Shown here piece after piece: positions 13,453-44,917 of a stretch of 44,917 bases of DNA. The position numbers and the translations under genes are program-made. A model generated the notes under the pieces. The model was not told where the DNA came from. It did no database searches and saw nothing but the letters and a program-made list of their open reading frames with translations. Each line of letters starts with the position of its first letter. Position 1 is the stretch's first letter. Origin of the DNA: Paramecium tetraurelia. Its lineage: Eukaryota. Location: NCBI GenBank assembly GCA_000165425.1, contig CT868003.1, positions 248,001 to 292,917 on the forward strand, written 5' to 3'.

Positions 13453-14331
13453 TCATTAGTTTCTACCAACCATTTCGGATATGTAGGGACCCTATGCCTT
13501 TACTGCAATCAAATCTGCTAATGGGTGAGGTAAGAATCTGATTAGATTTGATAATAGCCAATAAAATGAAGGAATAGAATGGACATCTTTTTAATTTTCA
13601 ATTGCATCAATGATTTCTATGGCGACTCTTTCTTCTTTTAATTCAGGCATTAGAAAATCGATTTTAGATTTCACTCCTTTAAACATTCCTGTGTTGATTG
13701 CCCAAGGAGCAATGAATGTGCATTTGACAGGACTTTTTTTCAATTTCAATTCAACTCTTAAACTATTATGAAAACCTAATAGAGCATGTTTGGAGGCACA
13801 ATATGCTGTTACTTTTAATCCAGTTATAATGGATAAAACAGATCCTACATTGACTATATGTCCAAATTTTTATGCTTCCATTTTGGGAATAAGTAGTTTG
13901 CATAGGATAACTGGTGCAAGGTAATTAACTGCATGAGTCAACTAAAGATCTTGAAATGATTATTCTGTGAATAGTTTCAGTTTAGCTACTCCAGCATTAT
14001 TGATTAAGATATGGATTGGTTCATTGATTTAATTAATAGTTTCTATGATCTGTTCTTATTTCGATAGATCACATTCATAAAATTGTACAGTACTTCCATA
14101 TTGTTCAATAGTATTTTTAAGATCAGCAACTAGATCCTTTCTAATGTCTAAGACAATAATCTTGCATTTCTTCATTGCCAATAATTTGCACATTTATTTT
14201 CCAATTCCCATGCATCCTCCAGTAATTAAAACAGTCATATTTGAATCTAGTTTGAGTTTTTTTTATTTCCTGATAAGTAAAAAGTATGTCAGAAAAATAA
14301 TGAAAAAAGTTAGGGTATAAACGACAATCAT
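13453..14331 (-). CDS. Short-chain dehydrogenase/reductase with N-terminal anchor (retinol dehydrogenase/SDR16C-like)
   Basis: N-terminal TM, TGGCMGIG Rossmann motif, ILINNAG, catalytic YCASK. 292 aa, intronless. Confidence 0.92.
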
Positions 14332-14392
14332 AAATATAATAATAATATTTATAATTTGAATTAGTTTAGATATTTATAAACAACACATGATT

Positions 14393-15342
14393 TCATTCAT
14401 CATTAACTTCTGCTTGTTAATCTTAAGATTCAATTCTAGCTTTTAATTTTTGATCACCCTTTCTAAGCTTCTTTCTTTTCTTTAAGGCTAGAGTACTGAG
14501 ATCTTGTTGTTAAACGAAAACCTTTCCTCTTTTGTCACCTACTTCATCATATACGATGTTTTTTTCCTAAAATGATTAATACATCAATTTACATGTGGTT
14601 TAGCTTTTGGTTTAGGTTAACGACAAGCTTTCTTAAATATTTCATCATCTGCCCACTTGGTTCTTCTTATATCAAAAACGCTTCTAGGTCCGATTTCTTA
14701 GATTTTGATTCCATCTTCATGAGTCTATTTTTACAATACTGTTATTGCTAAAGTAGAATCATCTGCTGCAGTAATGCTTATGATTAAATGGATTTCTTAT
14801 GACTTTATGTCTTAGATGGGGACATTTTCAAAAAAGAAATCAGTCAAAAGATTATGCAATTTCATATGATTTGGATTAAATCCGAAGACTTCACCATTAA
14901 AAACTATCAATGGTCTTGCATGCATAGGAACTTCAACAGATGTAGCAAATTCCTCTTGACTTTTGTATTCTTTGAGATGTAATTCTACCATGTCTAATAC
15001 TTTTTTATCAAATGTTCTTCCAATAATAAGATTATCTGGTCTTTTCTTTGAATTTGATACAAAGCAGAACATTGAACATTAGCTCCTTTCACAAAATGTT
15101 TCTAATTGTTTTGCATCTTCAAATGGTTGAATTTCGTGATTCTTATTGTAGGTTGTACTAAAATCTCTTTTTATCAAATGCCATTCATGAGCCAATTATC
15201 TTACACTAAGAGAAGTCTTAGGACCTCTTATGAACAGAGTTTGTTTTGGACCTTCAACTAATTTAGGTTCACGAGACTCTAGAATTCTTTTGCCTTTATG
15301 AGTCTTAGCTCCTCTAGGTGTTGTTTCTTCTTGATCAGACAT
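14393..15342 (-). CDS. RPF2: Ribosome production factor 2 (Brix domain)
   Basis: KTHKGKRILESREPKLVEGPK, HEIQPFED, SNSKKRPDNLIIGRTFDKKVLDMVEL, EIGPRSVFDIRRT. One 26-nt intron at about 14567-14592. Confidence 0.92.
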
Positions 15343-15427
15343 TATAATTTTAATTTAAATTAAAGAAATTTTTATATTAATAAATAAATTTATTTATATA
15401 TCAGAAATTTCCTATTTGATTACAATA

Positions 15428-18105
15428 TCAATAATCACTCTCTTCACTTTCCACTTCATCATCTTCATGTTCTGATTTGATATAATTATCTTTTAATGCC
15501 ATTAAATTTCTCTCTCGTTCTCTAATATTATAAATATTGAGCTATACTCTTATCTCCTTTCCTCCTCTAATAGTTTCCTTTGTTTAGCCTTGATCTCTTA
15601 TTAGATTCTTAATTATTTCAACTGTTCTTTCTAAATATCTTTCTATGTCTATGGATCTAATCTTGGCTATTTGAATTTGCTTAAAGTAGGAGGCTTTCTG
15701 CTTTTGAGTTTTTTAAGATGATTACTCATTCTAAGCTTGAATTCATCCTCTTTATTTGTATGTAAGTCTTTATGCTAGATGATAAAATAGAATGAATACT
15801 TTTTTCACCAGGAAAGAAGTAAGAATGTCTGTAAATTCGAACAGTAACAATTCATATTTAATAATGGATGTAGCTTTATCTAAAGTCTTTTTTTGATCTT
15901 TTTCAGCAGTCTAATCTTATTATTTCTTTCTACGCTTACTACCATCTTCTCTGACTGTTTAATTAACAGACGATTGATCAATTTAAGAAATCGATTATTA
16001 GGTAATTTGACCTTCATCAGTATCAAAGTTTTTATCTACATAACTTATTAGAATGAGTTTGTCTTATTCTGAAGCATTGAGTAGTTTATAGATTTACTCT
16101 AAATTAATAGTTCTATCAGTGAATCCAAACTATGTCTCTCTATTTTCGATTGACCATATATCAAATATAGGTTTGACTTCATCAATGAAATCTCCAATAA
16201 TTATTTTAGGATGAGTAGATTTCTTAGTATCATCTAAGGATTGATTCTACTTGCCCTTCTTTCTTTCAAAATATGGAGTCAATTTACTGATGATTACTCT
16301 CTCAATAGCTCTATGTAAATCAACCAGATTGCCATATTTCAAGTATGATAATCTCACAATTAATTCAATAAAATGTCTAAATAGAATACACCTTCTTGGA
16401 TCATGAATATCTTCAACTTTCTTCTTGAATGTTACATCTTTAAGTTGGAAATCTTGGTAATTGATTTTTTCAGTTGATATGCAATCAAAAGCCATTTGTT
16501 AATGAAATAAATCATTAAGTTCTTACAAGTTGATGTTACTACCTTATCTACTCAGAACATCAATTTCAACATTCAGTTCTAGTCTATCATATTTTAATCT
16601 ATAATTATTCTTGGATCCTTATAGGAAATTTCTGTTCAACTCTGCCAAAGAATAATTTTGATTCAATAATTTAGCCTAAATAATACAAATATTAAAGTAC
16701 ATCTCTTGCAATTTTCCAAAAACCTTCTAAACTCAAAGAGAAAGTATCTTCATAGAGCAAACTTTCAAATTTATTGGCAAAGAATTTATAATGTGTTTTA
16801 AGTGTGTAATTATGTCTCAATAACATAGTTTAAACATTTTGATCAATTAATTAAGAGTCTAGTTGCAATCCTTTATATAAATCTGAGAAATCAATCATAT
16901 AAGAATAGGGATTGGTTTCTATTGTTTTATTTAGATTAGTTTAAGTTTGATTGGGATTATTGATACCTGCCAATTTTTCAGGTCTCTTAGTGGTATTACC
17001 CAATTTAATCTTATCTTTATCTTTATCTTTATTATCCTTATCTTTATTGTCTTTATTATCTTTATTATCTTTTTTTCTGTCTTTATTATCCCCTGCTTCT
17101 TTAGGGTTTTCATGTTATTAGATTACTTCTCCACCTTGAGGAGCAATTTCTCTGGGTAGAATACCAGTTCTAGATTCATTTTCAGTTGTTGCATAAACCT
17201 TAAGTAATCTGTCTTATTTGAATTCTCCAAGAATGAAACCACCTGTATCTGTGATGAATAGAGCAACTCCATATTTGAGATTATTCCTCCAACTTCCCAT
17301 ATATTTGGCTCCATTTGCATAGTAAAAGACTCCAACTCCACTCCTTTCTCCATTTTCCCATTCTCCTTCATATCTATTCTCTCAAATATTTGGAACCTTC
17401 TCCTTTAGGTTCAATCCATAGATGAACTCCCCAACCATTTTGAACATTGTCCTTCCATTCTCCGTAATACTTTTCATTTGAATTCAACCAAAACATCACT
17501 CCCTAACCTTCTTTCTTGTCCATCAAGAAATCTCCATCATAATAATTTCCAGAAGGATAAATCATCTTGCCTTTCCCAGATTTATTGCCTTGATAGAATT
17601 GTCCTTCAAATGTGGCACTAAATTTCAAATTGGACAATTATACCCACTTTTGAAAGTAATCTTGCCAAAACCATGTCTTAAACCATTCTCCCATTAACCT
17701 TCATAAACGGCTGATTTATCTGCTGTAACAAATTTGCCTTGTCCATGTCTTAGTCCATTCACAACAATGCCAGTATAAGTGGAACCTTCAGGCCAATAAT
17801 AGGTTCCTTATCCTTCGATTTTGTTGTATGTGAATTCACCCTTATAGATAACTCCAGAGGCCCAAGTAAATGTGCCCTCACCTAGTTTATCGTAAATTAC
17901 TAGAACCATGTAACATCCCATTATGAAATTCTCCTTCATACTTGTTTCCATTTTTGAATGTAACTTCTCCCTTGCCATGTAATGCTTTGCCATAAACTTA
18001 ATCAGGCTGATCTAAGATGGCCAAATCAGCATCCCACTTATCATAAATGATCTTGGCCAAATCCAAAGGGATAATCAGATTTTTTGGATCCTCCTTGAAA
18101 TTCAT
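15428..18105 (-). CDS. RSPH10B: Radial spoke head 10 homolog B-like MORN-repeat ciliary protein
   Basis: About 10 N-terminal MORN repeats, including MFWLNSNEKYYGEWKDNVQNGWGVHLW...LRNRYEGEW...FYYANGAKY. Downstream IHDPRRCILFRHFIELIVRLSY. Both resemble RSPH10B as recalled. Acidic C-terminus. Confidence 0.8.
17010..17090 (-). repeat. Coding low-complexity (GAT AAT AAA / GAT AAA)n repeat giving DNK/DK repeats
   Basis: ttatct/ttattatct units encode GDNKDRKKDNKDNKDNKDKDNKDKDKDK inside the RSPH10B-like gene. Confidence 0.85.
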
Positions 18106-18172: not shown

Positions 18173-19483
18173 ATGGGAAATTGCCAACAGTGTGACAATT
18201 TAGATCCAATAAAAACTCAAGAGATTTTGACATCCAAAACCACCAAGTCCAAATAAAGCATGAAAATAAATAAAAATGATCTCAAAGGAATAATAAAAAT
18301 TCAAGCAAACTTCAGAGGTTTCATCACTAGAAAGTATTACATTAATCTCACCTAGAAAATACAAATTTAAATCGTCAGGGTCAACAGCACAAAAATATGG
18401 TACTTCCATTAACTAATAAAAGAGTTCTTAAAATGATTCAGTTATCGCAGACTCTTATTAAATCACTGTCAAAGCCTAATAAATTTAATAACTACAAAGA
18501 AGGCAATCTCCGATCAAAATTTTAGATCAGGATGACCATAGATAAATTTGTGAAGCCGATATTACAAGAAATATCCATAAAGATGAAGATGCAAGTTCCT
18601 ATTCTGAAGTTAGAAGCAAGCACTTAATCAGTTTTCAAATGAATGAACTCTGCTTCATTCCTATACATAAATAAGATCAGAAAAGAGTCTAAAATGAAGA
18701 ACAATAAAAGCTTTCCATTCTTTAAATGAAGAATGGATGCTACTATGAAGGATAATGGAAAAAAGGCATGGTTCATGGATTTGGAAAATATACCCTCTCA
18801 GAAACATCATTTTACATTGGAGAATGGATTGAAAATAAGGCAAATGGATTTGGTACTTTTCAACATTCCAATGGTGATATATATGTTGGATCGTGGAAGG
18901 ATGGTACTGCCAAAGGTAATGGTAAATACTCATTTGGAGATGGCACATACTACGATGGTTAATGGAATAATGACCTACCAAATGGATAAGGCAAATAAAC
19001 TTATGAAGGTGGATGGATTTATGAGGGTAAACTCTTTTCTGTATTCCAAAGCTAGGAAGCTTTTAAAATGGGTTTAAAAGTGGGTTTGGTTAGTTAACAT
19101 ATCCTGATGGAACTGTCTATGCTGGCAAATTCGAAAATGATCTAATGAATGGCTATGGAATACTGAGATTCCCAGATGGAAGAACCTACAACGGAGAATG
19201 GAAGAGTGGACTCAAAAGTGGGAAAGGAGAGTTTCTCTGGCCAGATGGGAGGAAATATGAAGGATAATTCCTAAATGATCAGAGAGAGGGTTACGGAGTA
19301 TTAATATGGTCGAATGGCCAAAAGTATAGTGGACTCTGGAAAGAAGGACTTCAACATGGGAATGGGTAAATCATTAAAGCAAATGGTGCTACCTTCCGAG
19401 GAAGGTGGATCAAAGGAAAAATAGTGTCAACTAAATTCACTACTAATACTCCAGCCAAAGTAATAAAATTAGTTAAGGGATGA
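18173..19483 (+). CDS. Acylated IQ-motif MORN-repeat protein
   Basis: N-terminus MGNCQQCD. IQ motif IQANFRGFITRK. About 10 MORN repeats (e.g. YIGEWIENKANGFGTFQHSNGD). Introns at 18334-18355 and 19027-19055. Confidence 0.88.
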
Positions 19484-21919: not shown

Positions 21920-23005
21920 TCAATCACAAACTAATTTAAGTATTTCCAAAGAGTTGATGTCAAGTTGTTTATCATTCAACTAATTGACTACTCTAATATA
22001 TTTTGATACAAATCTTAGAGATTGTTAAAGTGATTGTTTGGTCTTATTATGCATCTTCAGGAAATCCTCAAATAAATCATCTGATAGATCCTTTTGAAAA
22101 AGTGCAAATACTATTGAAAAGGAGAGATCCTCTAGAGAGTAACTCATGTAGTTGTGATCCAGAACGATGACGTTAATAATTTAATTGATAATTTTTGAAT
22201 CTTGATCTGATTAGCTTTTTAAATTAGGATGAGCAATATAAAACCTACAAATGATCTCATACATAATATCTTATATAGTTAGTGGATTCGTATGCCAATC
22301 TAAGACACTAAGGATGAGTCTCTCATATTGTATAAGTTATTGCTTGGTCATATTGAGTGATGACTATGATAAGAGTGAACTAATATTTGGAGTTTCAGCA
22401 TTCATTTTAGTTGCTACAAAGATCATAGCCAAGGATAGAAATCTTAATTGAGTTTAGTTATTTATGGTTTTACTTTTAAGTCTGCAAAGGAATAAATCAT
22501 AAAGATAGATGGCTTTATGAGAAAAAGGGTTATTTAAGTTCTAACAATTATCTTAAATTCGATTCAAGATGATGGCCCTTGTTTTGTAGTTATATTCTTT
22601 CTCATTGTATTCTTATAAGTACAGAGGATTGATATTGTAGATTTCTTTCTATATTGGAATTGGAGAGGATTTGGTCTAAAAGGTGATTGGGACTGATTCA
22701 TCATTTTGTATGCTCTCGTAGCAATATAAATCATCTTCATAGGTGTGGAGAGTGCTTTCGGCAGTGACTTTAACTTTCTAATACAAATTGAAAGAATTAA
22801 TACCTTAATAATTTATGGAGATTGTAACAAATAGTCGATTTGAGTGAAATCCTAGGTATTTGTTTGAGTATTGACGCATCTTTTGAGAGTGCTTGATTTA
22901 GTGGATGAGGCAAAATAGTCTAGAGATTAATTGCAATGTCTTACTTGTTGACCCTACTTAATTAAGTCCTAGCATCAGTTTAAATCTTTTGTTGTCCATC
23001 TTCAT
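21920..23005 (-). CDS. Divergent cyclin (cyclin N-terminal box)
   Basis: RAIILNRIQD..KAIYLYDLFL..QLRFLSLAMIFVATKMN..LIQYERLILSVLDWHTNPLT. Two 5' tiny introns. Confidence 0.82.
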
Positions 23006-23146
23006 TAATTATTTTATGGCGAGAAATCCTTTTAATAATTGCCTTTTTTATTTAAGACTGAGCGCAATTTAAAGATTTTCGTGTTTAATTTGTATTTTGG
23101 AACCAGAAAAGAGAAAAGTATTTTTAATATTATAATAATTATAAAA

Positions 23147-25764: not shown

Positions 25765-27386
25765 TCAATTCATTTACTATGATTGCATTAATAACGGAGA
25801 GCTTATCTGAGAACACGTTTTTTTTAAATTTGTTTATTTAGGCATATACTTTATAGGTGAAGAATAGAACCTATAACAAGTCATATCATCATCAAGTTAA
25901 GTCAATATTTTAGAAAATTGTACACGAGTTTTCAAAGATGATGCAAATTTTTCTACACTGAATTAAGATATATTATTGATTGGTTTTTTAGGTAAGAACT
26001 AATCTCTAGCTAAATATTTCAAAACTGATTTATCTTACAAATTTATTTCATTTTTAAGACTCGTATATGGTTGATCATCTGTATTCATATCTTGATCATA
26101 TTAATAATTAACCTTTGAAAACCGTTCACTTGATACTTTATTATGATCATGATACTATTTTATCCTAAAAATCATCTTCTTCAACTGAGGGGACACGAAA
26201 TTATTTGTCTTTTGTTTCTCTGTATCATCCTATATCTATAAGATAGGCAACTTCTCCTTTTACTCATATTTATCAATCAAATATTTCAGAAGCCATTTCG
26301 ATGACAAACCATACTCAATTACATCTACAAATTATTAACAAGGAATCTTAATAATTTTTGAGTCACTCTTCACTATCGCTGTTGTTCTTCTTATCAGCCT
26401 CTCCTTGCTTGTCTTATTCAAGTACAATTCATAATCTCCTATTAACTATCCAACACTGAACAAACCAATGTTTTTTATGCGTTTTTGCTTCTGAAAATTA
26501 ACAAAATACTTATTTTCTCTAATCTTTCCTCCAGCAGCATTTTCTATTGGCTCTTTAATTGAGACCTACACTTCCCCTTTAATTATAAGATACACTGAAT
26601 CCACAATCTACAATTCCTTATATAATAAACTTCCAGCCTAAATATTTAGTTCCTCTTGATTATGCAAAATGGATTGTAATTGTTATTCATTTAATAGATG
26701 AAATGGATGCATTCTTGCAATTACAACCTGTCTTAACTATAAATTATCAGCCTTTAGTTCACTCAGTAATGTTTAATAAGCATCAAAAGTCAAAATAGCA
26801 AATATGCAAGATTCTTTAGTAATGACAGTGGCTGTCCTTGGGATTCTCTGTTCTATTGCTATCTCTCCAAAATAATCATATTATTTTTTATAAGCAACAA
26901 TCCTGAAATTTTAATAACGATGTAAAATTAACTCATCGAAAGTCTTAGTTGCTCCTATTATAATATTTGATATTTCATTGTACTTCTTCGTTTATAGTCA
27001 TCCTTTTTTTAATGAACCTCAATTTAATCTTGATTTCTAATTAAAACAGCTGCTTCTCCTTGTAAAATAATATACATTTTCCTTCCAGTTTCACCTTGAT
27101 TAAATACAACACTGAATGCATCGAATTTTTCTATTGATATGGTTGACATCAATTTAATTAGAATACTGGGATTCAATTTATTACGTATTTATTAAAAGTA
27201 ATTAACATATTGCTCAAACTTATAACACAACAATTATAATTATGAATAGGATCTGTTCTTTGGCTCAATACTTAATATTGCTATAATAGTATCCACATCT
27301 GACAAATGTTTACGTTACTATTTATTATTCCCTTAGAACATTGAATCATCACTCTCAGATTCCTCTGAACTAGACATAAAACTCAT
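25765..27386 (-). CDS. Soluble protein with two cyclic-nucleotide-binding domains
   Basis: VFNQGETGRKMYIILQGE and phosphate-binding cassette YFGEIAIEQRIPRTATV. Second degenerate CNBD: IYKE..VYLIIKGEV..IGDYE..RRTTAIV. Confidence 0.85.
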
Positions 27387-28856: not shown

Positions 28857-29390
28857 TATTAAATAAATAAAATTAATTATTTTAGTAACTATTAATATAA
28901 TAAATATTTATATCGATCCATAATATATATTACAATAAAAACAAACTTATGTTTAAAACTATATTAAATTTATGTGTAATTGAAATCTAAAATAAACAAA
29001 CAAATTTATCTTCCAAAGAAAGTTCCGATATTTTTATCATCAATTATTATTTTGATAAAAAATGTTTAAATAACTAAGAATGAAAGTTAATGATAATTAT
29101 CATAGAGTTACTTTTAAATTACAACAATTTGAATTTATTGAAGTAGTTTTATAATTAAATATGTAATTAAAGCATTTCCATTACTATTAAGTAAGAACAA
29201 AGCGGTTAATTGATCTAAAATAAAAATTTTATGAGATGTCAGGTACACATTCTCTCTTAAATTGATTAGATCATACTTCAAGTAATCTACTAATGTAAGT
29301 AGTTCTCACATTGATATACATCATCTATTTGTAATTGTTTGCATCAAAATAAAATTATAATTAATATTCTAGTGATAATAAAAATAATTG

Positions 29391-30857
29391 ATGCTTAATG
29401 AAGAAATATAGATTGCTTGTCCCATTCATAATTAAGAAATCGTTCTACTTGATATTCAAGAAGGTATTCTCCTAGGAGAAAGGGCTTGCTGTAAAGAATG
29501 TCACATACGAAAAGCATATAGTATCACTAAAGCAATACAAAGAATCAATGCGTTAAGACTATAATAAACTTAGTTTATCAATAATAACATAGAGTAGACA
29601 CTGGCAGATATAACATAAATAGAAAAAACAATAAAAGAATTTTGGAAAGAAATTGAAGTTGGTTTTCTTGAAATGAACAAATCTTTAGACAATTAGAAAG
29701 CAATTCTAAAAGGGTAATTAAATGGTGAAAATGAAATAAAGATTAAATCTTTAGGAGATCTTTAACAACTTGGATAAATGATATTTGAATTAGAAAACAA
29801 TAAACTTAATCAATAAAGTGAAATCAATCAAGAAGATAATAATCTTTATTAAAGTAATCTACACAATCAATTAGATTAGATTTAGAATATTGTTGAGAAA
29901 TATTTGACTACATTAAAAGCCACAAAAATTAATCAAGAATTATAGGTTTTCTTTCGAAATAACTATTAAGAAATTTAATCTACTTTCTTGGAAAGATGGG
30001 TTGATCCTATTATATTTTTAAATGATTAGTTAAAGGCAGTATTATGTGATTTTGCTGGAGTTCTAGAGCTCAATTTTGAGAATAACCAATGTTTAGTCTA
30101 GCGTTTAATATAGATGTAGAATATAACTGGAATTTATGTTGGAGCTGATTTAACTTGGATAGTAACAGCAGGACAAGATGCAAGAATATCAATTTGGCAA
30201 GCAGACAATTAGAATTGGAAATTGAGCTAGTAACTTTAAGGACATCTTCACTCAATCAATAAAATGATAATTAATAAAACTGAATCATAGGTGATATCTG
30301 GAGGATTAGACAGTAAAATTGTAATTTGGAATAAGAAAGGCTCTAAATTAGAAAAACATGCCTCTTTAAAATAACACGAGAAAAGCATTACAAGTTTAGC
30401 ATGGAGTCACTCTGGAACATATTTTGCTTCTGGAAGTTCTGATTAAAATTTGATTGTTTGGAAATCTAATAATGGAGCCTGGGAGATATTTTAAAAGATT
30501 AGCGATAAACATCAAGCTATGATTTCTGACATTATCTTTGATAATTATGATAATATTTATACTGCAGCTGAGAATGTTAAAGTATGGAAATAAGATAATT
30601 GTCAGAAATATCTGCTTTCATCAATTGTTAAAACCTTCAATGAAGTCAAAAAAATGCTGTTCGTTTACGATCACTAATATTTAATAATTTTACAAAAAAC
30701 CATAGAAATCTATAAGGTTATGAAAAATGATATAGTTCACAAATAATCAATAGATGACGAATATAATAGTGTTGCAGTTTCAAAGGATGGTTAATATATG
30801 ATAGCTTAAAAATATAAAAATCAATAATTACAATTGTTGAAATTATAAGCGATGTGA
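29391..30857 (+). CDS. WD40-repeat protein with N-terminal Cys/His Zn motif and coiled coil
   Basis: CPIH...CCKEC N-terminus, then a coiled coil, then WD repeats (VTAGQDARISIW, GH..ISGGLDSKIVIWN, FASGSSDQNLIVWK). 488 aa. Confidence 0.88.
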
Positions 30858-32169: not shown

Positions 32170-35100
32170 TCAACTATGAACTACTGAAGATGATTTAATT
32201 ATTGTTGAATTTTGAATAAAGGAAGTCTATAATGGTTATGCTTTCTTTCTTAATTCATCACACTCGATTAATGCATTTTGAAGTGATTAAGTTAATCTAT
32301 CATTGTCATCTGTAAGCATGACAATTTGATCATTCATTCTACTATTCTCACCTTATGATTTTGAATATTTTTGAATTTAGACCTCTAATTGTCCTGCCAA
32401 CAGAGCGCATTTATTCTCAAGATCATTTTTTGATTTTTCTAATTTTTCAATTTATCTTTATAATAAATCCATTTTTGCATGCCATTCCTCCTTTTCTTTA
32501 TTTTAAGTAACAATCTATAATTGTAATTTCTATTCTTCAACTTGTAATTGCTTGATAATTTAGTTTTATGAATCATAATCATTTAATCTAAATTAAATTT
32601 ATAATTTTACTTCTGTTTCAAATCCAACAACTCTCTGTTCTTACTTTGCAATTACTATTATAACTCTTCCTATTATTTATTTAAGGCTTAGATTTTGCTT
32701 TCTAATTCATTTTTGATTCCATTAAATTATTTCATTTAATTGCATTCGTTTTGTAATCTTTAGACTTCTTATATGAGATCCTCAGATTTAACACTTAAAG
32801 TTAATTGGTTCGATTTCAAAGAATCTATGTCCTATAATAAGGTGGTGTTCTTTTGTTCAACATTTTCCTTAATTTACTTAAGATCTTCGCATTCCTTTTA
32901 TTTAAGAGCTAAGTTTTGTTTAATAGTATCAATTTATCCTTTCATTTAAATAATTTATTCTTCAGATCTTCTAGCATCTCCTTCAAAAGCTGATAATTAA
33001 GTAACTAATGTTTCTAAACGTTGATTAGCTTCCTTCAAATTATCAATTTCATCATTTTTAGTCTTGACCATATGCTTTTATCTTTCAATTTCAGAGGCTA
33101 ACAATGCTACTCTTGATTCTAAACTTTCCTTCCAATATTAGAATTAAGCAGCCTCAGCTTCTTTGATTTTCAATTTTTCTTTCAAATCATTTAGTTAATC
33201 TTATAATTATTAAGAATCCTCAATAATTTTGGCATAATCTGTTTCAATAGCTTCTAATTTCTTTAATCTCAAAACTGCATTTTGATTTGTAACCTTCAAT
33301 TAGAAATTCTCTTCTTAGATTTCATTGATTCTTTTTTGGAATTGATTCAATTATGAAATATGTTATTCATTTGCTTATTCTAATTCCACAATAACTTTGG
33401 ATCTTTCTTGAATCTATTATTCTTGGCTCTTTAATTGCTCTTAAGCGTGTTACAAATCCTTTAAGTATTGATTAGCTGTCTCTGTGGCTTAAGCTAATTG
33501 TACTTAAATATTGGCCAAGGAATTTTAACTAAAATAAATAATTAATGTACTCTTTTTAAACAATATGTTATAAATCTTCCCATTGGTTTCTAAAAGGTAT
33601 CAATTGATTAATCTTAAACTCTTGATTCTCATTTTAAGTCTGGAGAGCCTTTACTTGACTACTCAATTATTGGTTTTTGGTTTATAATGCAAAGTTTTCC
33701 TCTTAGGATTGTCCTAATTGACCTTCCACAATCATTAATTTCTAACCTAATCTTTCTGCTTCAAGTGCCTTTACTTCTGCTTTGCCTAGACGATTATTTA
33801 ATCTATCAACTTCCATCTATAATTAAGTCAATGTTGCCTTGATCTCCTCTTTTTCTGATGCTGCCTTTTCATATTTATCAACGTATTCTTATCTGATCTT
33901 TTAAGTATTTTCTAGATCTGTTCCAATCAAATAGTTAGAAGTCTTTAATTTAGCAATATCTTAATCTTTTACATTACTAATGCTCTTCAAAGAAGCATAT
34001 TCATTCTATAAAATTTAATAGTTCTTCAATTATAATTGATATTTGGCAATTTTTTAATTCAATTTATCAATATCTGTATTTAATAATGTCATCTCATTAA
34101 GTTAATCTTCAATTTATTATTATAATTAACGATTTTATCCTTATAATTCAGGTAAACTCTTTTCCAAGAATCTCAAATCAGTAATTCTAGATTCCTAGGT
34201 ATTGCATCTACTTCTTAACTCTTCACATTCTCTCACCTTATTTTGGAAGGCTAAAGTTAATTTTTGATTTTCCTTTAATAATTCATCAATTCTCTTTTAT
34301 AAAGGTGTTAAATCCTTGTCTGCTAGTTCTTATTTCAATAAAGGAATCTAGGTAGCTGTATTCAAGAATTCTTATTGTAATTTATCATATCTACTTTAGA
34401 GTTATTACAATTATTATTAAAGCACTTCATTAGATTCGTTAATATTTTGAGCCTAAGGTTAACTTTAAGATTGTTCTCTTAATAATTGATTGAGTCTTTC
34501 GTTATCCAATTTACTTTAAGTGAGTTATGCATTTGCATAGGTATATTTCTCTTCAATTCCCTTTAAATCGTGATTTAACTATTCTGATTGTAAGTATTTT
34601 CTTCTCTAATTTTCACAATCTTCTGTCTTTATTTGCAATTGAATCTTTAAATATTAGAGGTCTTAAACCATTTGATTGATTTCTCCTTAAGATTTCAAAT
34701 TTTGCTCAACAGATTATAAGGAAATCTTTTATGAATTGTTCTATTCATCTATTAATTGACTTTTAAGTTATTTGATTTCATTAAGTAATTTGGTGTTTTC
34801 AGTGTTCAATAAAGCTTGTTGTGCTTCTAATTCTTTGAGTTATTTCTTAGCTTCGGTAGCATCAACATAATAATTACCGGCCTATCTTCTCCAGTCTTCA
34901 ACTTCTTATCTTCTAGCTATTAATTATTTTTGTAGCAATCTCATTTAATCATTTAAGAAATCACAATTTGTTTATAATTCTTAGTTCAATCTAGATAATA
35001 GATCTAATTCAGATGACAATTGATTAGATTTTAATGCCCATTAGTTCACTTCAGTTTTATCTTCAATACGAGTTTCTTATGTAATTTCAATTGAAACCAT

Positions 35101-36870
35101 TTATTAAGACAATAACATGTATTACTTACTTTATTTATCATATTGTTCTTATAATTGAGCAAATTCTGCTTTTAATTACTCAATAACATTCAACAAAGAT
35201 TTAATTCTAGCTTCTAATTCGCTTGTGTCTTTACTCTTAGGTTGTAATTCAAATTAAGTTAGTTTTCTTCTTAGATTTTAGATTTCATTATCTTTCAAGA
35301 TGATAAGCTCATTGAGTTTCTTATTATCAATTTCAAACAATTTTAATTATTGAATTCTAGCTTACAAATCTTATATTTCAATTTTATTAGCTTCAATTTG
35401 ATCTTCTAAATATTTGACTCTTCTAATTAATGTTTAATTTTCATTATTTAATTGTTTGATTTAAGTAGTCAGATATTTGGTTTCTTCCAATCTTTATTGA
35501 ATTTAATTCTTCTCAATTTCTAGATTACCATATTTAATTTTGAGTGCATCCAATTGATTCTTTCTATCATTAGCTATTTGTTTGAGTTCTTCAACAGCCA
35601 CTATTAATCTTTTATTTTCACTTTCAAATTCAATCTTTAACAACTTTTCATGTCTCAATTCTCCACAATTATTCTCTAATCTAGAAATTTCTTTTCTTAA
35701 TTCTGTCATTGCCGTCAATTATACCTATAACATTTCATTGAGATTGCCTATTTCTTAATTCAATACATTGATTTCCAATAATTTATTTTGTAAATTAGTA
35801 ATTTCAAGATTCTATTCATTAATTAATTTACTCTTTTATTGAATAGTCATGCTCAAATTATTCAATTATTCCTGTAATTTGACTATCTTCATCTTCTAAG
35901 CTTCAACATCTTATTATTTTAATTCAACTTCAGTTTCCATTTACAAAGTCTTCTTTCTCCATTCATCAACCTAACCTTGTAAATGCTGAATCAAATTTTT
36001 CAATTTCAGAATTTCAGCATCTCTTAATTTGATTTCAGTTGCATTGTTTCTCTAGGCAGCCTCAATTTAAACAGCATTCAGTCTTTCATTGAGTTCGAAG
36101 ATTTAATTTTATAATTTATTTCTCTCATCCACCATTTCCCAATATCTATCTTACCATTAATTAGCCTAACCTTCAAGTCCTTTCAATTGCCCTTCAACCT
36201 ACACATTCTTAATTTCAATTGCTTAGTACCTACTCAACTCAGCTTCCAATTTATTGTATTTGTCTCTCCATTCATCCAATTCCCCTAATCTACTCTTCAA
36301 TTATACTTACAAGTTCTCTAAAACATAGAAACCAATAATACCATAGTTATTCTTTGTCTCCTCAATTGAATTGTTTAATTCATATGTATTTAATCTCATT
36401 TTCAATTCGTCATTTTCTTTGATCAGGGATCTAATCTATCCATACAAATCATTGTTCTCCCCGTATAACAATTGTATCTTGGCCTCTTATAATTTAATCT
36501 ATAAAAATCCATACTATATTTATACCACTTCTTCATTTGCTATGTTCTTGTCATACATGGCCATCAGATCCAAATATCGTTTTCTCCACAATTCAACTTC
36601 ATGCAATAGAGATTGGATCCTGACTTCATAATCAGAGAAATTTTGTTAATCCACTTTCTTAGTGACAGTGTATTGAACATCTAAAGGGATGACAGTCTCT
36701 CTTGGAGTTGATGATAATAAAAATTAGGATTCTCTTAGCTATGGATTCACTATAGTTTCTCGCTGAATAACAGATCCTCCATTGCGCTCTCCAAGTTGAG
36801 GAGACAAGTAGCGCATATGCGATTTTGTTAATGATGACTAAATGATTGATTCTTACTTAGAGAAACTCAT
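32170..36870 (-). CDS. Giant (~1500 aa) coiled-coil protein, probable cortical cytoskeleton component
   Basis: Long E/K/Q/L heptad-rich frame with a few tiny introns. Recurrent ExxWRxK and LESRVALLASEIER-type motifs. Confidence 0.85.
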
Positions 36871-37029
36871 TTATAAAGATATTTTTTTATTAAATAAACT
36901 TATGCATATATAAATATACAGACATTTTATTTAAGATCTCAATTATATAACGTATATTAATCTAATATAAGAAAAATAAGGGCCTTCCTTAAACTCAAAT
37001 TTATATAATAAAAAATAAAACAACCTTAA

Positions 37030-37758
37030 ATGAAGTTTTCTAGAACAGCATCTACTCATCTCACTAATTTATCCTTTAGGTCAAGTAATCCAAGCACTAC
37101 TCAAACACCCTAAAGCAATTCACGTTTGAGTGAGGTTAATAATAAAATTGATGATCTATTAAAAAAGTCAACTACTTCAATCAACAAATAAGAGTTTAAA
37201 TTTCCTTCTTAAGAGAAAAAGATTAATTAAACTTACAATTGTACTCTTATGACTGAACAAGCATAAAAGGAAAAAAAATAATTATTGACAATCCTATTAT
37301 AGAAAGATAGTATTATAAGGGACTAATAGAACAAAATTGCATAATTGGATTAATAGAATAAGAATTTGATGAAGTAATTGCAATAATTCACTAATCTTCA
37401 ACCTTAAATGGGATAATTGGAAGAGCAATGCTAATAAATTATCAAGTAGAATGAATAACTGAAATATGAGAAAAACTAAATACAAACCTCGCTTAATTAT
37501 CTTAAATGCTAAAACATTTAAGTTATAAGTCAAGAATTAAAGAATTCTTTGTAATAACTGCATTAACAAATAAAGAAATATTACATCTGCAATTATAAAG
37601 AAGACTACTATAATTTAGAATAAAGTAGAATGACTCTAAAAATGAGTGACCTTGATTTCTATACTATACTAAGGGAATGTTTGGATTGCATATTGTATAT
37701 GATTAAAAACACTGACCATTCATTAGACCAATATTTAAATAGAAATACTAAAATTTGA
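37030..37758 (+). CDS. Hypothetical coiled-coil protein (~242 aa)
   Basis: MKFSRTAST...YLNRNTKI-TGA, open in code 6. An alternative start at 36902 via a 20-nt intron is possible. Confidence 0.72.
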
Positions 37759-38822: not shown

Positions 38823-41237
38823 ATGGACAATAGGCAATTCGAAGCAATACAAGTTTAATCTCGTAATACAGTGAAATAATAGGAAGTAAGGTGGTATTAT
38901 GATAAAAGGACCTTTATATATCATTGCCAGATTTATATATTAGAAAATATGTGCTTTCTGAAAAAATATGTGCTTTGAAAAAACCATACATTCCAAAAGT
39001 GAATATGCACGATCATACAAATTAAGAAGTATAGGTGAATCGTAATTTTAGATTCTGAGAGTGCCAAAAGTTTGGTAATAAGTGATGAATGATGTACAAT
39101 TGAAGGCGCTTGATTTTTAAGAGAGAAAGAAATGGAAAGTAAGTGAATGATTGAATTTTGCATAGATAGCTGTGAATTATTAATTAGCATAGGAAGCTAA
39201 GGCCACTCATTAGATGTTACAGAAAGAGAGGGAAGAAATTGAGTAATTTGGAATTTGTATTTCTTACTCATTATGTCAGATGGTATAAAAGGCATTCAAT
39301 TAAATGGGTAGTTATTAAATTATAGGATTAGACGTTGAGGAATCTAATTAGAAACCAATATAAAAGTATTTGAAGACGATGAAGGGTGAGAATTAGGATT
39401 TGGATGAGTAGAGATATTAAGATGCACTTCAAAAAGTGAAGAGGTACTTGTCAACAAATAGAGATATCTACGTTTCCTTAGAATCACTATTTCCAGATAT
39501 GCAATAAACTTATTCAGAATCAAATACTCATGATATCCATTCCAGTGATAGGAGAAAGATTAAACAGACAGTTGAATTCGATTTTAAGAAGAAATATGAG
39601 AATCTTTAGGAGGCGTTGCAATTGTTTGTGAATAAGGATATTCCATTAAAGGAGTCTTTTGAGAAGAGCGTAATGAGTATAGAGAGTTTTCCGACTTCTT
39701 TGGAAATGATATACAAATACAAAGTGAAATTATACTATCAAGAACCTTGTTTGGATCCAGAATATGAAGAATTATTATATAGAATTGGTTGTACTCCTGA
39801 ATAGGTTTTGAATGATGGAGAAAAGATGATGAAAAAGTAATTTAATTGATGATTTTAGAATGAAGATATTTTCAAGTAATTAAGTTGTAGAACAATAATT
39901 ACTTCCTTAGTTAGAATTAAAAGATCTGTTTCGATACAAATATAATTACATAGAAAAAGATTGCCATTTTATTTAACAGAATGGAAAATTCATTCCATTA
40001 AATGCTGAAAGATTTAATTTGCATTCTTAATAGATAACAAAATCCAATGACTTAGTCAAACAATATTTCATATAGTATTAACTTTAAAAATTAAATTTTT
40101 AGTTATTATCAGAAATTCTAAGGGGACTTCAATTAAGTTAGTTAAGCACTATCGTCAAACACCGTCACAGCCAATTTATATTTGTATACCCCAAATTTCT
40201 GTGCCGATCTCTATGCTTGGTTGATATTTAATAAGAGCATTCCATCAAACTCTAAATTTATATTGCCTTAACAATATTAGAAGAAATGCGAATCTATTAA
40301 ATACATGTAGAAACCTCAATAACAAACACCTCAATACAATAATATACTAAATGATTATGAATCACTAATTTAAAAGAAACTACCAACCAAAATACAACAT
40401 CTAAGAATCACTTCCTTAGAATGCATTTAAATAATATACGAAACCTGTCTTCAAAGAATTACTAACTAAAATCAAATTTGATGACCCCATATCAGTTAAG
40501 ACTTCTGGATAAGCTGATTATTCAATGGTTGAAAGACTTTCATTTTCTAATTTGAAAGAGTTAGTCAAATCTGCTAACAATTCAAAAGGCCATATTGAAA
40601 AAAGATACAAAAACATATATGACATAGCCAGATAAGATTGCTACCCTATTGAATAAATTAAAAAAGAAATTGTACATAATTCTTATATTTTTAGAGGAAA
40701 AATTATAAATAATAATAATTGGCAAACTAAAGAATGTTCCCGATGTCAACTATGAAATATAATTAACCGCAAACTTCTGGAATACCAATTAGTCAATATT
40801 AGCAAAAACCAACAACAATTGAGAATATGAGCACCACTTAGAATATTTTATTGTCATCATAGCAAACATCTACACAATAAACTGTGCCAATATAAACCTA
40901 ATAACCATTGTAAACAGCGTAACCACCATAAGCTCCTCCTCCTCCAGTAGCTTAACCATATAATTCATCTGGTACATCAAGACCACGTAAAACAAAACCA
41001 GAAGTTCCTGCTTAAACTCCTTAATAAGCTCCTCCAGTTGTTTAATAACCAGCATCTGCAAAGAAAACCAATAGAAAAAAGGATGATTCAGTAGCTCAAC
41101 AAGCTTCAGTAACAACTCCTGCCAATGTTGAAACTTAGGAACCACCTAAACAATCCAAAAGAACCAAAAAATAAACTAAGGCCAACGAAAAAAATAAACA
41201 ATAATAACCAGAAGATCGTAAAGATGATAGTGTTTGA
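38823..41237 (+). CDS. EAF1-like HSA + SANT/Myb-like chromatin scaffold with Q/P-rich tail (one unresolved frame change)
   Basis: HSA-like VPKVWQQVMNDVQLKALDFQERKKWKIAVNYQLAQEAK. SANT-like YYQKFQGDFNQVSQALSS..YTPNFCADLYAWL. Introns at 38886-38908, 39029-39051, 39139-39165, 39837-39858, 40075-40102 and about 40672-40694. Confidence 0.65.
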
Positions 41238-41732: not shown

Positions 41733-42609
41733 CCCTACCAATATCATTATTTATTGTATATATTTATGAATTAAACTGAAAATCACAATAAAATAATAAT
41801 TTTCCTGTTAATTATGAATTCATTTTCGGAGGACCTTGGGAATTAAAGTAGAATTTAGCATTCAAGACAACCCTACTAACATCAAACAGATTGAGTTTAG
41901 ATTGATAGAATTTTTTTATTCTCGATTTCTATTTCAATTTATGAGTAACTTAATTGTATTAATATAATCAAAATACTAATTTAAGTAACTATTCTTTTCA
42001 ATCTTTAAATTAATAAGAGTAGTCATACAAATCTTCGAATGAAGTTCTAAACATTCATTTAAGAAATTGCTCAAATTCAATTAGAAAATCGAAAACTTAA
42101 ACCAAATTTCTTGCAATCGATTTATGTTACTAAAAATATACCTCGATAAAGTATCAAGAACACTAATTATTATTAATTTTCATTCAATTCTAATAAAAAA
42201 TATCCATAATCAAGTTATCAAAAGAGGATTTAATTGTTGGAAGATTTAAGACAAGAACGGAGCTAAAAATAAAGTAGTAACAAAACTGAAGTCATCAAAC
42301 TATAAAACAACTATCCTGAATATATAGTAGTGATATTAAGAATATATAGTTTATTCTTATTCGTCAACCTTCATTAAAGAATTGATATATCAATTTAAAA
42401 ACAACTTTTATAGAATGAAATTCTTTCAAAAAAAAAAATATTCTGAATCAAAAGTTATTGTTCATAAACTATTAATTATAAAATAAATTGTATATTATGA
42501 ATTTTAGTTGGTTGTGGCAATCTAAAAATTCCAAGAATGCCATTGCTTATGTTAAAACTGAAATTTAATGATATAGTTAAGAAATCAATAATAAAAATAT
42601 AATATATAA

Positions 42610-44048
42610 TCAATCATTGTTGGAAGATTTGTGGCTAATTTGCATTAATTAATCGTGAAAACTAAAAAGCTTTTCGAAAATTGTTTAGTTATTTATAAAG
42701 AATGCACTTGAGAATTATAAATTAAAAGAACCTTTGAGTTTAATTATTGCTTCCGTGTTCCAAATAGTTTTAGAAATCCATTCATCACAGCATTATATGG
42801 AATCAACCCATCTTCCTTAAATTTCTAGAGCTTCAACTAATAATATATTTTTTAATACTTTTTTTGATATAGAATTCACTTATAGTGTTGTTTTTTTTAA
42901 TTCCTTTATCCCAACATTAAATAATCTCTTCAAATTTTCCCTATTTGAATAAACATCGTGCTTTAAAACTATTATTTTAATTACTTTTGGCTTCGTAAAA
43001 AATCATATCATCGAATAAATCAATATAATGATTGGCCTCTTCGATAATTTATTCTATCTTTTCTTATTCTTCTAAAGCTTAAACTAAAATTATCTAATAA
43101 AAGTTAACATTTCTTTTTATAAAAAAATGAAGTATTTGGATTATTTTTCATTCCTTCGTCCCAACATTCAATGATTTCTTCCAATCTATTTAATTTCTTT
43201 AAATAATTAGCTAATCATTACTAAATCATTACACCTTTATCTTCATAAAAGATTTGAACCTGCCTATGCATATGAATTCCATGATTCAAACATTTAATTA
43301 CTTCATCCCATCGCTCTAATTTTTCTAAAGCACTAACTTAAATAATTTACTGTCATTCTACCTTTAGATTTAATATAAAATAGAGTATCATTTCCATTTT
43401 ATATTGCAAAATCCCAACATTCTACTATCTTTTCTTAACAAAATGTTTCTCCATAACATTGGATTAAAGCCTAAACTATATTATTCAAACTTTGAATACC
43501 TTTTTGCTTATAAAAATATGGATCTGTTTTATTATTTTAAATTCCAAACTCCCAAACTTAAATAGCCTCCTCTAACCTATTCTATTTTTCTAACTCCACA
43601 ACTATCAAAATACCAGGATATTTTGTACATTTATAGGCGTAAAATATAGGATCAGTCTTATTAAACATTATTCCTTAATCATAGCATTTAATTATCTCAT
43701 CGTATCTCTTTTGACTTTTTAAAGCACAAACTATAAACTTAAATGCATAAATACCTTTCTAGTGATAAAAGGTAAAATCATTTTTATTATTTTAAATCCC
43801 TTATTCCCAGGCATCGATAACTTCATTTTGAAGATCTAATTAATTTAAAATCCTTGCTAAATGGATTTATTCATCTATTAATACTTTTGGCTTTGTAAAA
43901 TTCTAATTCATTTTTGTTATCTGATATTGCAATATCACATTATTTTAAGGCATCTTGTAATCTACCTTACTTTATTAAAAGAGAAACTATAAATTAGAAT
44001 CTTTATACTTTCTTTAGAAATAAATTGAAAATCTGATTTTGAATTCAT
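42610..44048 (-). CDS. TPR-repeat protein (~10 repeats, one per exon)
   Basis: Repeats such as VELEKQNRLEEAIQVWEFGIQNNKTDPYFYKQK. 11 phase-1 introns. Stop is at 42610, or at 42585 if the last intron is spliced. Confidence 0.88.
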
Positions 44049-44113
44049 AAGGGTATTACAATATTCTCAGCTTAATTTATTTTTTATTTTTTATTTAATA
44101 TTCAATTTCTATT
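44049..44113. promoter_or_regulatory. 65-bp putative bidirectional promoter between two TPR-containing genes
   Basis: Divergent ATGs at 44048 (-) and 44114 (+), with an AT-rich spacer between them. Confidence 0.5.
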
Positions 44114-44917
44114 ATGTTAGAATAGAATTGTGGTTGCTCTGTTGATCATTAAGAGGAAATAATTGGAATTTGTTTATCAGATAAATGTGTGAATAATGCA
44201 TAATTTTGCTATAATTGTTTAAGATAATTTCATTATGAGCACTAAAAATAATGCCAGACTTTTAAAAATCTCTTCAACTAACTGGTTGAGGATAAAAAAT
44301 AACTTTAAATTTATGTTAATTATGTAAAACAATTTAAGGTGATATTTGACGAAATCTATCGAAAGCAGCTAGAAAAAAGTTAAGAAAATATTGAAAAATT
44401 AAATTCAATAAATTTACGTATAAAAGAAAAATCATTTTATCCAACAGATTCAGACATCCATTTTCTTAGGAATTATAAGTCAAGCTAACAATATTTTTAA
44501 TGTAAATTATAATAATTATCTGAACAGAATGGATTGCCAAATTGGAGTGGATTGAGAAATGAGTTTATAATTAGAAGGATTATTAAGATCAGGATCAGAA
44601 CAAAACTGACTAATAAACAATAGATAAGACTTAAGATTAGAAGCGTGCTACTGAACCGGACTTAACTGATGGTTAAACAATAGATCAAGATCAAGATTGA
44701 GAGAACACAGATGTTGTGGTATAATAAGGTATGCATCAGATATTCAATTTTGGGTATTGACTTATTTGATAACAAGTGATTTCGGGGAGCATTAGTAATT
44801 TTTGAGAGGTTTCCTAATTCTCATAAAGAGGCTATCAATTGGAAAAGTATTTTTCAGATTCATAAGGTTGATAGTGTAATGCTTATTGCGAATGAGAGGT
44901 TATCGTTATTTTGTCGA
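44114..44917 (+). pseudogene. Zn-finger/coiled-coil/TPR gene, 3'-partial, disrupted by in-frame TGAs (pseudogene or sequence error)
   Basis: N-terminus CSVDHQEEIIGICLSDKCVNNAQFCYNCLRQFHYEH. Intron 44502-44527. In-frame TGA at 44560, 44698 and 44777. TPR-like GIDLFDNK*FRGALVIFERF. Confidence 0.6.

Follow-up and report, generated by a model that had tools for sequence, protein, structure and literature searches.

Genes whose repeat domains are assembled from exons of one fixed length have been reported from Tetrahymena and from brown algae. In Tetrahymena, nearly 50,000 exons of exactly 90 base pairs (bp) have been found, more than 96% (or more than 98%) of which are separated or preceded by phase-2 introns, and these 90-bp arrays are stated to be unique to Tetrahymena (PMC6564038, 2019). 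In Ectocarpus, genes combining NB-ARC with tetratricopeptide repeats (TPRs) carry one TPR per exon, mostly in exons of 126 nucleotides (nt) that hold the repeat and a linker, along with 21 exons of 102 nt (PMC3341825, Zambounis et al. 2012); later work on brown algae is found in PMC11378527. No description of a Paramecium TPR exon array was found in the literature searched, and only the Tetrahymena and brown-alga reports were recovered. The locus analyzed here is a TPR gene on the minus strand of a 44,917-nt stretch of the Paramecium tetraurelia genome (contig CT868003.1, positions 248,001 to 292,917; hereafter, the window). An earlier note, made from the sequence alone, had described it as an array of one-repeat-per-exon modules and had proposed it as a TPR counterpart of the Tetrahymena arrays; the precedent that it cited, leucine-rich repeat (LRR) exons fixed at 90 nt with introns of one phase, agrees with the published account (PMC6564038).

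Taken as a whole, the evidence makes it probable that this locus, the macronuclear gene GSPATT00030277001 of P. tetraurelia, encodes a soluble protein of ~397 residues made up entirely of TPRs (ten clear 34-residue repeats with degenerate N- and C-terminal caps), that all 11 introns are real, with indirect support for their splicing, and that the one-repeat-per-exon layout is the historical footprint of an old tandem amplification and not a working generator of diversity. Under this reading, a DNA unit of ~126 bp, consisting of 102 nt of coding sequence (one repeat length) and a phase-1 intron of ~24 nt, would have been amplified in tandem, and each copy would have inherited the intron at the same site and in the same phase, as the identity of position and phase suggests. 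The amplification would be old, and the copies would then have diverged through point substitutions and small insertions or deletions. Their order would have stayed collinear with that of the nearest relative, and the array would now be an ordinary, static, though fast-diverging gene.

The GC content of the window is 21 to 35%, and the window translates into protein only under the ciliate code; together with introns of 22 to 28 nt, these features form a Paramecium signature, which is confirmed by a named P. tetraurelia protein. When a read-through piece (P0001) was used as the query, a single protein of 381 amino acids was returned (P0002), corresponding to P. tetraurelia GSPATT00030277001 / XP_001427041.1 / UniRef A0BM76, with the public name "tetratricopeptide repeat protein." The translation of the window is identical to P0002 wherever the public gene model and the 11-intron model agree. 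With all 11 introns removed, the coding sequence spans 42585..44048 on the minus strand, from an ATG at 44048 to a TGA at 42587-42585 (397 codons, code 6). The earlier note had ended the gene at 42610, which is indeed the last base of a TGA (42612-42610), but this codon serves as the stop only if intron 11 is left unspliced; the protein has 397 residues either way. A plus-strand gene over the same DNA was considered and rejected. Its open frames of 301 and 247 codons are as expected from a code with TGA as the only stop in AT-rich DNA, and they carried neither a repeat nor a family signal.

A check of every coordinate upheld the intron list of the earlier note: all 11 introns start with GT and end with AG on the minus strand, and all 11 interrupt a codon after its first base (phase 1). 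The internal exons likewise measure 102, 102, 102, 102, 114, 102, 102, 99, 102 and 105 nt, each a multiple of 3 (10/10), behind a first exon of 40 nt. The motif F-Y-x-x-K, described as typical of the intron position, stands directly before the intron in exact form in 8 of the 11 cases, as F-Y-x-x-x-K in one and in degenerate form in two. The features are given below with reference to the public model and to two relatives, P0003 from P. sonneborni and P0009 from P. tetraurelia.

Exon 1, 44009..44048, minus strand: 40 nt; N-terminal cap, ending in a degenerate F-x-x-K-x; absent from the public model
Intron 1, 43987..44008, minus strand: 22 nt, GTA..TAG, phase 1; retention leads to a stop after 37 codons
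Exon 2, 43885..43986, minus strand: 102 nt, TPR unit; P0003 and P0009 align here; out of frame in the public model
Intron 2, 43857..43884, minus strand: 28 nt, GTA..TAG, phase 1; retention leads to a stop at codon 51
Exon 3, 43755..43856, minus strand: 102 nt, TPR unit
Intron 3, 43731..43754, minus strand: 24 nt, GTA..TAG, phase 1; length a multiple of three (3n), no in-frame TGA; spliced identically in the public model
Exon 4, 43629..43730, minus strand: 102 nt, TPR unit
Intron 4, 43602..43628, minus strand: 27 nt, GTA..TAG, phase 1; 3n, no in-frame TGA; retained in the public model
Exon 5, 43500..43601, minus strand: 102 nt, TPR unit
Intron 5, 43476..43499, minus strand: 24 nt, GTA..TAG, phase 1; 3n, no in-frame TGA; spliced identically in the public model
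Exon 6, 43362..43475, minus strand: 114 nt, long TPR unit of 38 residues; collinear with a 37-residue long repeat of P0003
Intron 6, 43337..43361, minus strand: 25 nt, GTA..AAG, phase 1; spliced identically in the public model
Exon 7, 43235..43336, minus strand: 102 nt, TPR unit
Intron 7, 43211..43234, minus strand: 24 nt, GTG..TAG, phase 1; in-frame TGA
Exon 8, 43109..43210, minus strand: 102 nt, TPR unit
Intron 8, 43084..43108, minus strand: 25 nt, GTT..TAG, phase 1; spliced identically in the public model
Exon 9, 42985..43083, minus strand: 99 nt, TPR unit of 33 residues
Intron 9, 42961..42984, minus strand: 24 nt, GTA..AAG, phase 1; 3n, no in-frame TGA; retained in the public model
Exon 10, 42859..42960, minus strand: 102 nt, TPR unit; matches Pfam TPR_1
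Intron 10, 42837..42858, minus strand: 22 nt, GTA..TAG, phase 1; spliced identically in the public model
Exon 11, 42732..42836, minus strand: 105 nt, degenerate TPR unit of 35 residues with a "CC" motif
Intron 11, 42707..42731, minus strand: 25 nt, GTT..AAG, phase 1; the least certain of the eleven; retained in the public model
Exon 12, 42585..42706, minus strand: stop TGA at 42587-42585 (at 42612-42610 if intron 11 is retained)

The length of 102 nt accounts for 7 of the 10 internal exons, the remainder measuring 114, 99 and 105 nt. GTA forms the start of 8 of the 11 introns; 8 end in TAG and 3 in AAG. The probability that 11 introns fall into one common phase is 1.7e-5 if equal phase frequencies are assumed, and in Intramacronucleata, the group to which Paramecium belongs, most ciliates have the three phases in roughly equal numbers (PMC13685798). 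Intron interiors contain 14% GC, compared with 25% in the exons. Intron lengths in P. tetraurelia range from 18 to 33 nt with a mean of 25 nt (PMC8997360), and the fit of the 22- to 28-nt introns to this range supports their being real. Only the removal of introns restores both an open frame and the 34-residue period: the frame ends after 37 codons without splicing, and retention of intron 1, 2, 6, 7, 8 or 10 singly truncates the protein. Each intron cuts the codon for position 8 of the TPR_1 model, in the middle of helix A, and each exon spans the second half of one helix A through the first half of the next, so that an exon equals a repeat in length without being a structural unit. At the 5' end of the gene, a tblastn alignment of P0009 extends to 44029, inside exon 1. 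Toward the 3' end, exon 11 is collinear with repeat 9 of P0003, R-W...I-x-C-C being common to both, and the tail after spliced intron 11 starts like helix A of another repeat.

As exon lengths are 3n and the phase is uniform, gain or loss of a unit would be frame-neutral, and the suggestion that exon number could change with the frame intact therefore holds in principle. The statement that other genes in this region have far fewer introns was checked indirectly; to that extent it is borne out by uninterrupted frames of 1256, 1237, 704, 508, 498 and 493 codons in the window.

The uniform position and phase could also have arisen by parallel gain. In this alternative, the amplified repeats had no introns at first, and each later acquired its tiny intron independently, by insertion or intronization, at a proto-splice motif, A-A-A/G followed by G-T, after the conserved lysine codon. 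All donors do lie behind an A-rich codon for lysine (once glutamate), in the context aaag/GT, aaaa/GT or aaat/GT (the slash marks the splice site). The intron interiors resemble each other no more than shuffled sequences do (similarity score, -0.71, versus -1.14 +/- 0.46 for shuffles), and intronization of coding sequence has been discussed for Paramecium (PMC9612004). However, 11 of 11 repeat boundaries are occupied, those of the degenerate end units included, at one codon position and in one phase, whereas independent events should leave gaps and some scatter of phase. Furthermore, 22 to 28 nt of unconstrained AT-rich sequence loses similarity fast, with exon divergence here at ~44% of nucleotides, and dissimilar introns are therefore no argument against co-duplication. 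Parallel gain is less likely than tandem amplification, the most economical account, and we regard it as very unlikely.

A hidden Markov model (HMM) of the repeat recognized 10 units in the spliced model, with start spacings of 34 (seven times), 38 and 33 residues. Pfam matches to P0002 were TPR_14 (38.6 bits; cutoff, 23.5), TPR_11 (29.0 bits; cutoff, 26.8) and TPR_1 (28.3 bits; cutoff, 27.8). Three single exons of 33 to 34 residues matched no Pfam family, single exons and read-through pieces falling below the cutoffs. Canonical TPRs are characterized by small and large residues at positions 4, 7, 8, 11, 20, 24, 27 and 32. In the TPR_1 register, the repeats carry Y at position 4, L at 11, I at 20, W or Y at 24, G at 27 and N at 31 or 32; positions 7 and 8 hold K and a variable residue, in place of L and G. 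The AlphaFold2 model of P0002 contains 20 helices, which are paired, and has a mean predicted local distance difference test score (pLDDT) of 80.6. Foldseek returned 308 matches with E <= 0.001, the top ones being the TPR domain of O-GlcNAc transferase (OGT; 6eou, E = 6.4e-10), a consensus TPR superhelix and SPINDLY, at a probability of 1.00; a sequence search of the PDB gave no matches at E <= 0.001. The predicted structure is a TPR superhelix of the OGT/SPINDLY type, and no domain besides TPR was detected in the protein.

The public model splices 5 of the 11 introns identically (introns 3, 5, 6, 8 and 10). Its start is an internal ATG, from which it continues across intron 2, without exon 1 and without exon 2 in frame; it treats introns 4, 9 and 11 as coding; and it replaces intron 7 with a 36-nt phase-0 intron (43232-43197), which cuts the repeat to 30 residues. 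The outcome is a protein of 381 residues with an irregular period, compared with 397 residues and a regular period in the 11-intron model. In P0002, intron 4 corresponds to residues 87-95 (9 amino acids), which overlap a low-pLDDT segment (83-89) and the lowest interior 10-residue block (81-90; mean, 46). Intron 9 corresponds to residues 265-272 (8 amino acids), adjoining the low-pLDDT segment 260-264, and block 261-270 (mean, 49) is the second lowest ahead of the C-terminal tail; in the tail after retained intron 11, blocks 341-360 have means of 48 to 52. Because the 11-intron model alone holds the 34-residue period, relatives align to exon 2 and blocks of low pLDDT occur at the read-throughs, we consider it the better of the two. 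The public model probably errs in six places: where it starts, at introns 2, 4, 9 and 11, and in how it bounds intron 7.

Divergence among the repeats bears on whether the array is still active. Across the ten internal-exon units and the last exon, repeat identity averages 28% (maximum, 50%) at the amino acid level. The seven 102-nt exons are on average 56% identical in nucleotide sequence (maximum, 63%), their third codon positions being 46% identical, compared with 32% in shuffled sequences, and neighboring exons are not closer to each other than distant exons. Tandem Repeats Finder (minimum score, 30) reported no period of ~126 nt among 60 rows, no recent gain or loss of a unit is visible in the array, and the repeats have drifted too far apart within the gene for the ratio of nonsynonymous to synonymous substitution rates (dN/dS) between them to be informative.

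The earlier note had suggested that whole binding modules might be duplicated, shuffled, converted or skipped. Such an active recognition system, in which 102-nt phase 1-1 TPR exons would now be undergoing these processes in a Tetrahymena-like manner, has several points in its favor. The form fits, exon length being fixed and phase uniform; the Tetrahymena precedent is real, and TPR ranks within the top seven domains found in species-specific Tetrahymena genes (PMC6564038). However, active duplication, shuffling or conversion does not agree with the missing nucleotide-level repeat signal, the exon identities of at most 63%, the unrelated intron interiors or the failure of adjacent exons to be more alike than distant ones. 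In these respects, the gene resembles the older "group II" state in Tetrahymena, which is without nucleotide-level repeats (PMC6564038). No paralogue turned up in the window outside the locus itself: all 55 tblastn high-scoring segment pairs lie within 42500-44100. No exon skipping is on record for P. tetraurelia (PMC8997360), and skipping of one exon would remove ~150 nt, far above the intron range of 18 to 33 nt; it is an unlikely source of variety in this species.

Comparison with relatives provides a further view of the age of the array. At E <= 0.001, an exhaustive HMMER search yielded 1514 proteins, the majority of them generic TPR proteins; the named relatives include five in P. tetraurelia and more in three sibling species, and those from Paramecium have the same repeat form, ending in F-Y-x-x-K. 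The closest is P0003 of P. sonneborni (732 amino acids, 38% identity). The best BLAST register against P0003 scores 202 bits and the next 157 bits, mean identity on the collinear diagonal is 38.4%, versus 32.2% overall, and a long repeat and a C-C repeat occupy matching ranks in the two proteins. This collinearity, tested on one relative and at the protein level, argues that the array predates the split of the two genes and that its order has been kept. It is the outcome that the earlier note itself had associated with an "ancient static tandem duplication," and the shuffling that it proposed is not supported. In P0003, the N-terminal 9 repeats alone are collinear; its C-terminal half has more irregular repeats, with apparent frame errors or read-through introns, and P0003 may consist of two arrays or be a mis-modeled gene.

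Two P. tetraurelia paralogues, P0009 and P0016, each contain one clean 8-residue insert right behind an F-Y-x-x-K-type motif. The inserts start with S or C, as expected of a retained 24-nt phase-1 GT intron, and P0118 from P. primaurelia has no insert at the boundary homologous to that of P0009. These alignments suggest that the intron position is shared across the family. P0009 and P0118, which are possible orthologues, are 49.5% identical over 430 alignment columns. This value seems low for a pair of P. aurelia species and hints that the TPR family diverges quickly. Both the shared position in the paralogues and the low identity of P0009 and P0118 would suit an active diversifying system, as would a nearest homologue at 38% and none above 50%. 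The collinear repeat order speaks against it, and together with the divergence data it leaves active diversification quite unlikely. A metagenome scan with P0002 produced 8 pattern matches, none of which was confirmed.

Several points weigh against the preferred reading of an old, static and fully spliced array. Introns 3, 4, 5 and 9 are 3n without an in-frame TGA, each adding 8 to 9 residues if retained (405 to 406 residues in all); the reading frame alone is therefore no proof of them, and they could be partly or wholly exonic. Stopless 3n introns are depleted or counterselected in Paramecium (PMC5014332), and their number here, 4 of 11, runs counter to this depletion; the count of 3n introns as such (5 of 11) is not significant (p = 0.29). 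Moreover, no splice junction was observed at the read level. Read assembly on the locus in four runs placed one contig of 157 nt, from an RNA-seq library, at 43183-43339, which is unspliced across intron 7; the other three runs gave none. The contig could stem from pre-mRNA, from a target of nonsense-mediated decay (NMD) or from a DNA source, and it neither confirms nor refutes splicing.

Two features of the read data nevertheless point, weakly, toward the junctions of the 11-intron model. The contig ends, 43339 and 43183, match to the base the branch points expected, at k=31, for the intron-6 and intron-7 acceptors given in the earlier note, whereas the public acceptor predicts 43167; the argument assumes that contigs derive from a k=31 assembly graph, an assumption that itself counts among the weaknesses of the reading. 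The match is a weak hint in favor of these two junctions, with spliced and unspliced molecules coexisting. As a separate observation, contig ends such as those of 43183-43339 may hold splice-site information even where no joint is reported. The shares of sampled 31-mers present in three runs from three studies (0.54, 0.50 and 0.49) lie close to those predicted for mRNA with all 11 introns spliced (0.50 to 0.58) and below those for the public model (0.66 to 0.73) and unspliced RNA (0.86 to 0.93), with a sampling error of ~0.04 and a share of 0.97 in DNA runs; the RNA nature of the three runs is a guess, however, and partial coverage could yield the same shares. This agreement, too, is a weak hint in favor of the junctions of the earlier note.

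A related alternative is that introns 3, 4, 5, 9 and/or 11 are not constitutive and are retained in some or all mRNAs. The frame would then stay open, at 397 residues in the case of intron 11, and introns 4, 9 and 11 are retained in the public model. The counterselection of stopless 3n introns (PMC5014332) is consistent with this alternative, as is the finding that phase-1 3n introns are poor at generating stops when retained (PMC13685798). As retention of introns 3, 4, 5 and 9 adds residues without a stop, it would be invisible to NMD. On the other hand, the 34-residue period is lost where these peptides are kept, and they lie on or next to the segments in which the fold model is least confident; the introns are of typical length and are bounded canonically by GTA..TAG or GTA..AAG; the 31-mer shares of 0.49 to 0.54 are nearer to the removal of all 11 introns than to the public model; and the public model comes from automated annotation. 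Retention of these introns is accordingly unlikely. If it did occur, the resulting isoforms would carry a helix A lengthened by 8 to 9 residues, or an altered C-terminal tail, and would be NMD-blind.

The remaining points against an old and static array concern the fold model and the relatives. The low pLDDT at the peptides of retained introns is not independent of the periodicity of homologues, as the fold prediction used an alignment of homologues. The permutation p value for collinearity with P0003 (p = 0.0026) is optimistic, since the offset was the best of 8, and it covers the N-terminal 9 repeats of a 732-residue protein. No relative with more than 50% identity was found in word-based searches of proteins of 209 to 2000 amino acids, though proteins of P. 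sonneborni, P. primaurelia and P. pentaurelia are in the database, and this result is more in keeping with fast turnover than with a quiet housekeeping gene. Candidates shorter than 209 amino acids lie outside the search range, and fragmentary models of orthologues are possible among them. A control search with a neighboring frame (39151-39846) scored 0 of 60 candidates, P. tetraurelia included, and is uninformative on database coverage; the true gene there probably lies outside the searched length range. Finally, the role of the protein, as predicted from the fold, is most likely that of a protein-protein interaction scaffold.

Like the Tetrahymena LRR arrays, the locus is a ciliate repeat-protein gene with a fixed 3n exon length, one intron phase, split codons at the junctions and many introns per gene. 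It differs in that the repeat is a TPR and not an LRR, the exon measures 102 nt and not 90 bp, the phase is 1 and not 2, and the introns are 22 to 28 nt long. Furthermore, it is a single gene in a single window, with no evidence for tens of thousands of exons; neither clonal expansion of exons, nor mixing among recent paralogues of one species ("inparalogs"), nor retrotransposon involvement is apparent. Seen as a counterpart of the Tetrahymena arrays, the gene thus retains one repeat length per exon, uniform phase and 3n exons; the claim of an active diversifying system is not supported.

The locus resembles the Ectocarpus genes in forming a TPR domain from repeat-length 3n exons, of which units may be gained or lost in frame; the 102-nt (34-residue) exons are a minority class there. 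In contrast, the brown-alga exons are joined to an NB-ARC signaling domain, and neither this nor any other domain is present here. The brown-alga system has reportedly been taken up in later work by Teng et al. in 2023. Inactivated exon copies inside introns and high gene turnover by birth and death are described for Ectocarpus, and diversifying selection is inferred there (PMC3341825), whereas the 22- to 28-nt introns of the Paramecium gene contain no extra exon copies and no recent shuffling is seen. With OGT, SPINDLY and designed consensus TPRs (6eou, 1w3b, 7y4i and 8chy), the protein shares a predicted superhelix of stacked helix-turn-helix units. However, it has no catalytic domain, identities are 11 to 16%, and TM-scores are only ~0.3; a common fold need not mean a common function.

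The divergent neighbor of the TPR gene is a plus-strand frame at 44114-44776, whose start lies 65 nt from the ATG of the TPR gene. By eye, its N terminus is Cys/His-rich in a B-box-like pattern and leads into a stretch resembling a coiled coil; no Pfam family was matched by the neighbor frame 43925-44776. Similar Cys/His N termini, also judged by eye, are fused to TPR arrays in the TPR relatives P0048 and P0008. An uninterrupted plus-strand frame of 493 codons at 29376-30854 (Pfam WD40, 67 bits) has a Cys/His-rich N terminus that by eye resembles that of the neighbor of the TPR gene, and it may be another member of a ciliate group combining B-box-like and repeat domains. The remaining genes of the window, at 9367-11478, 25768-26997, 21923-23146, 13456-14583, 14587-15804 and 33370-37080 on the minus strand and at 18264-19145 on the plus strand, are ordinary Paramecium content. 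Their Pfam content includes two cyclic nucleotide monophosphate (cNMP)-binding proteins, one of which is an ion channel with a cyclic-nucleotide-binding domain, together with a cyclin, a short-chain dehydrogenase, one Brix-domain protein and one MORN-repeat protein; the 1237-codon frame matches no Pfam family and appears coiled-coil-like by eye.

As it stands, this is an ordinary gene with an instructive history, already public and of a known kind of architecture. It offers a clean example of the growth of a repeat protein near the lower limit of intron size, in which intron position and phase have outlived sequence similarity, and it indicates that repeat periodicity can be used to correct gene models with tiny introns. 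Whether Paramecium has an undescribed TPR gene family with 102-nt phase 1-1 exons, introns of ~25 nt, turnover or divergence so fast that no copy above 50% identity is common to sibling P. aurelia species, and unusually frequent stopless 3n introns whose NMD-invisible retention inserts 8 to 9 residues into chosen repeats is doubtful on present evidence. If it did, the family would be a TPR counterpart of the Tetrahymena 90-bp LRR arrays, with splicing as a route to variant binding surfaces that does not involve exon skipping. If such exons proved to be common and fast evolving in Paramecium TPR genes, the ciliate "exon array" phenomenon would extend beyond the LRRs of Tetrahymena, and the cluster of stopless 3n phase-1 introns would offer a test of the NMD-based theory of selection on intron length.

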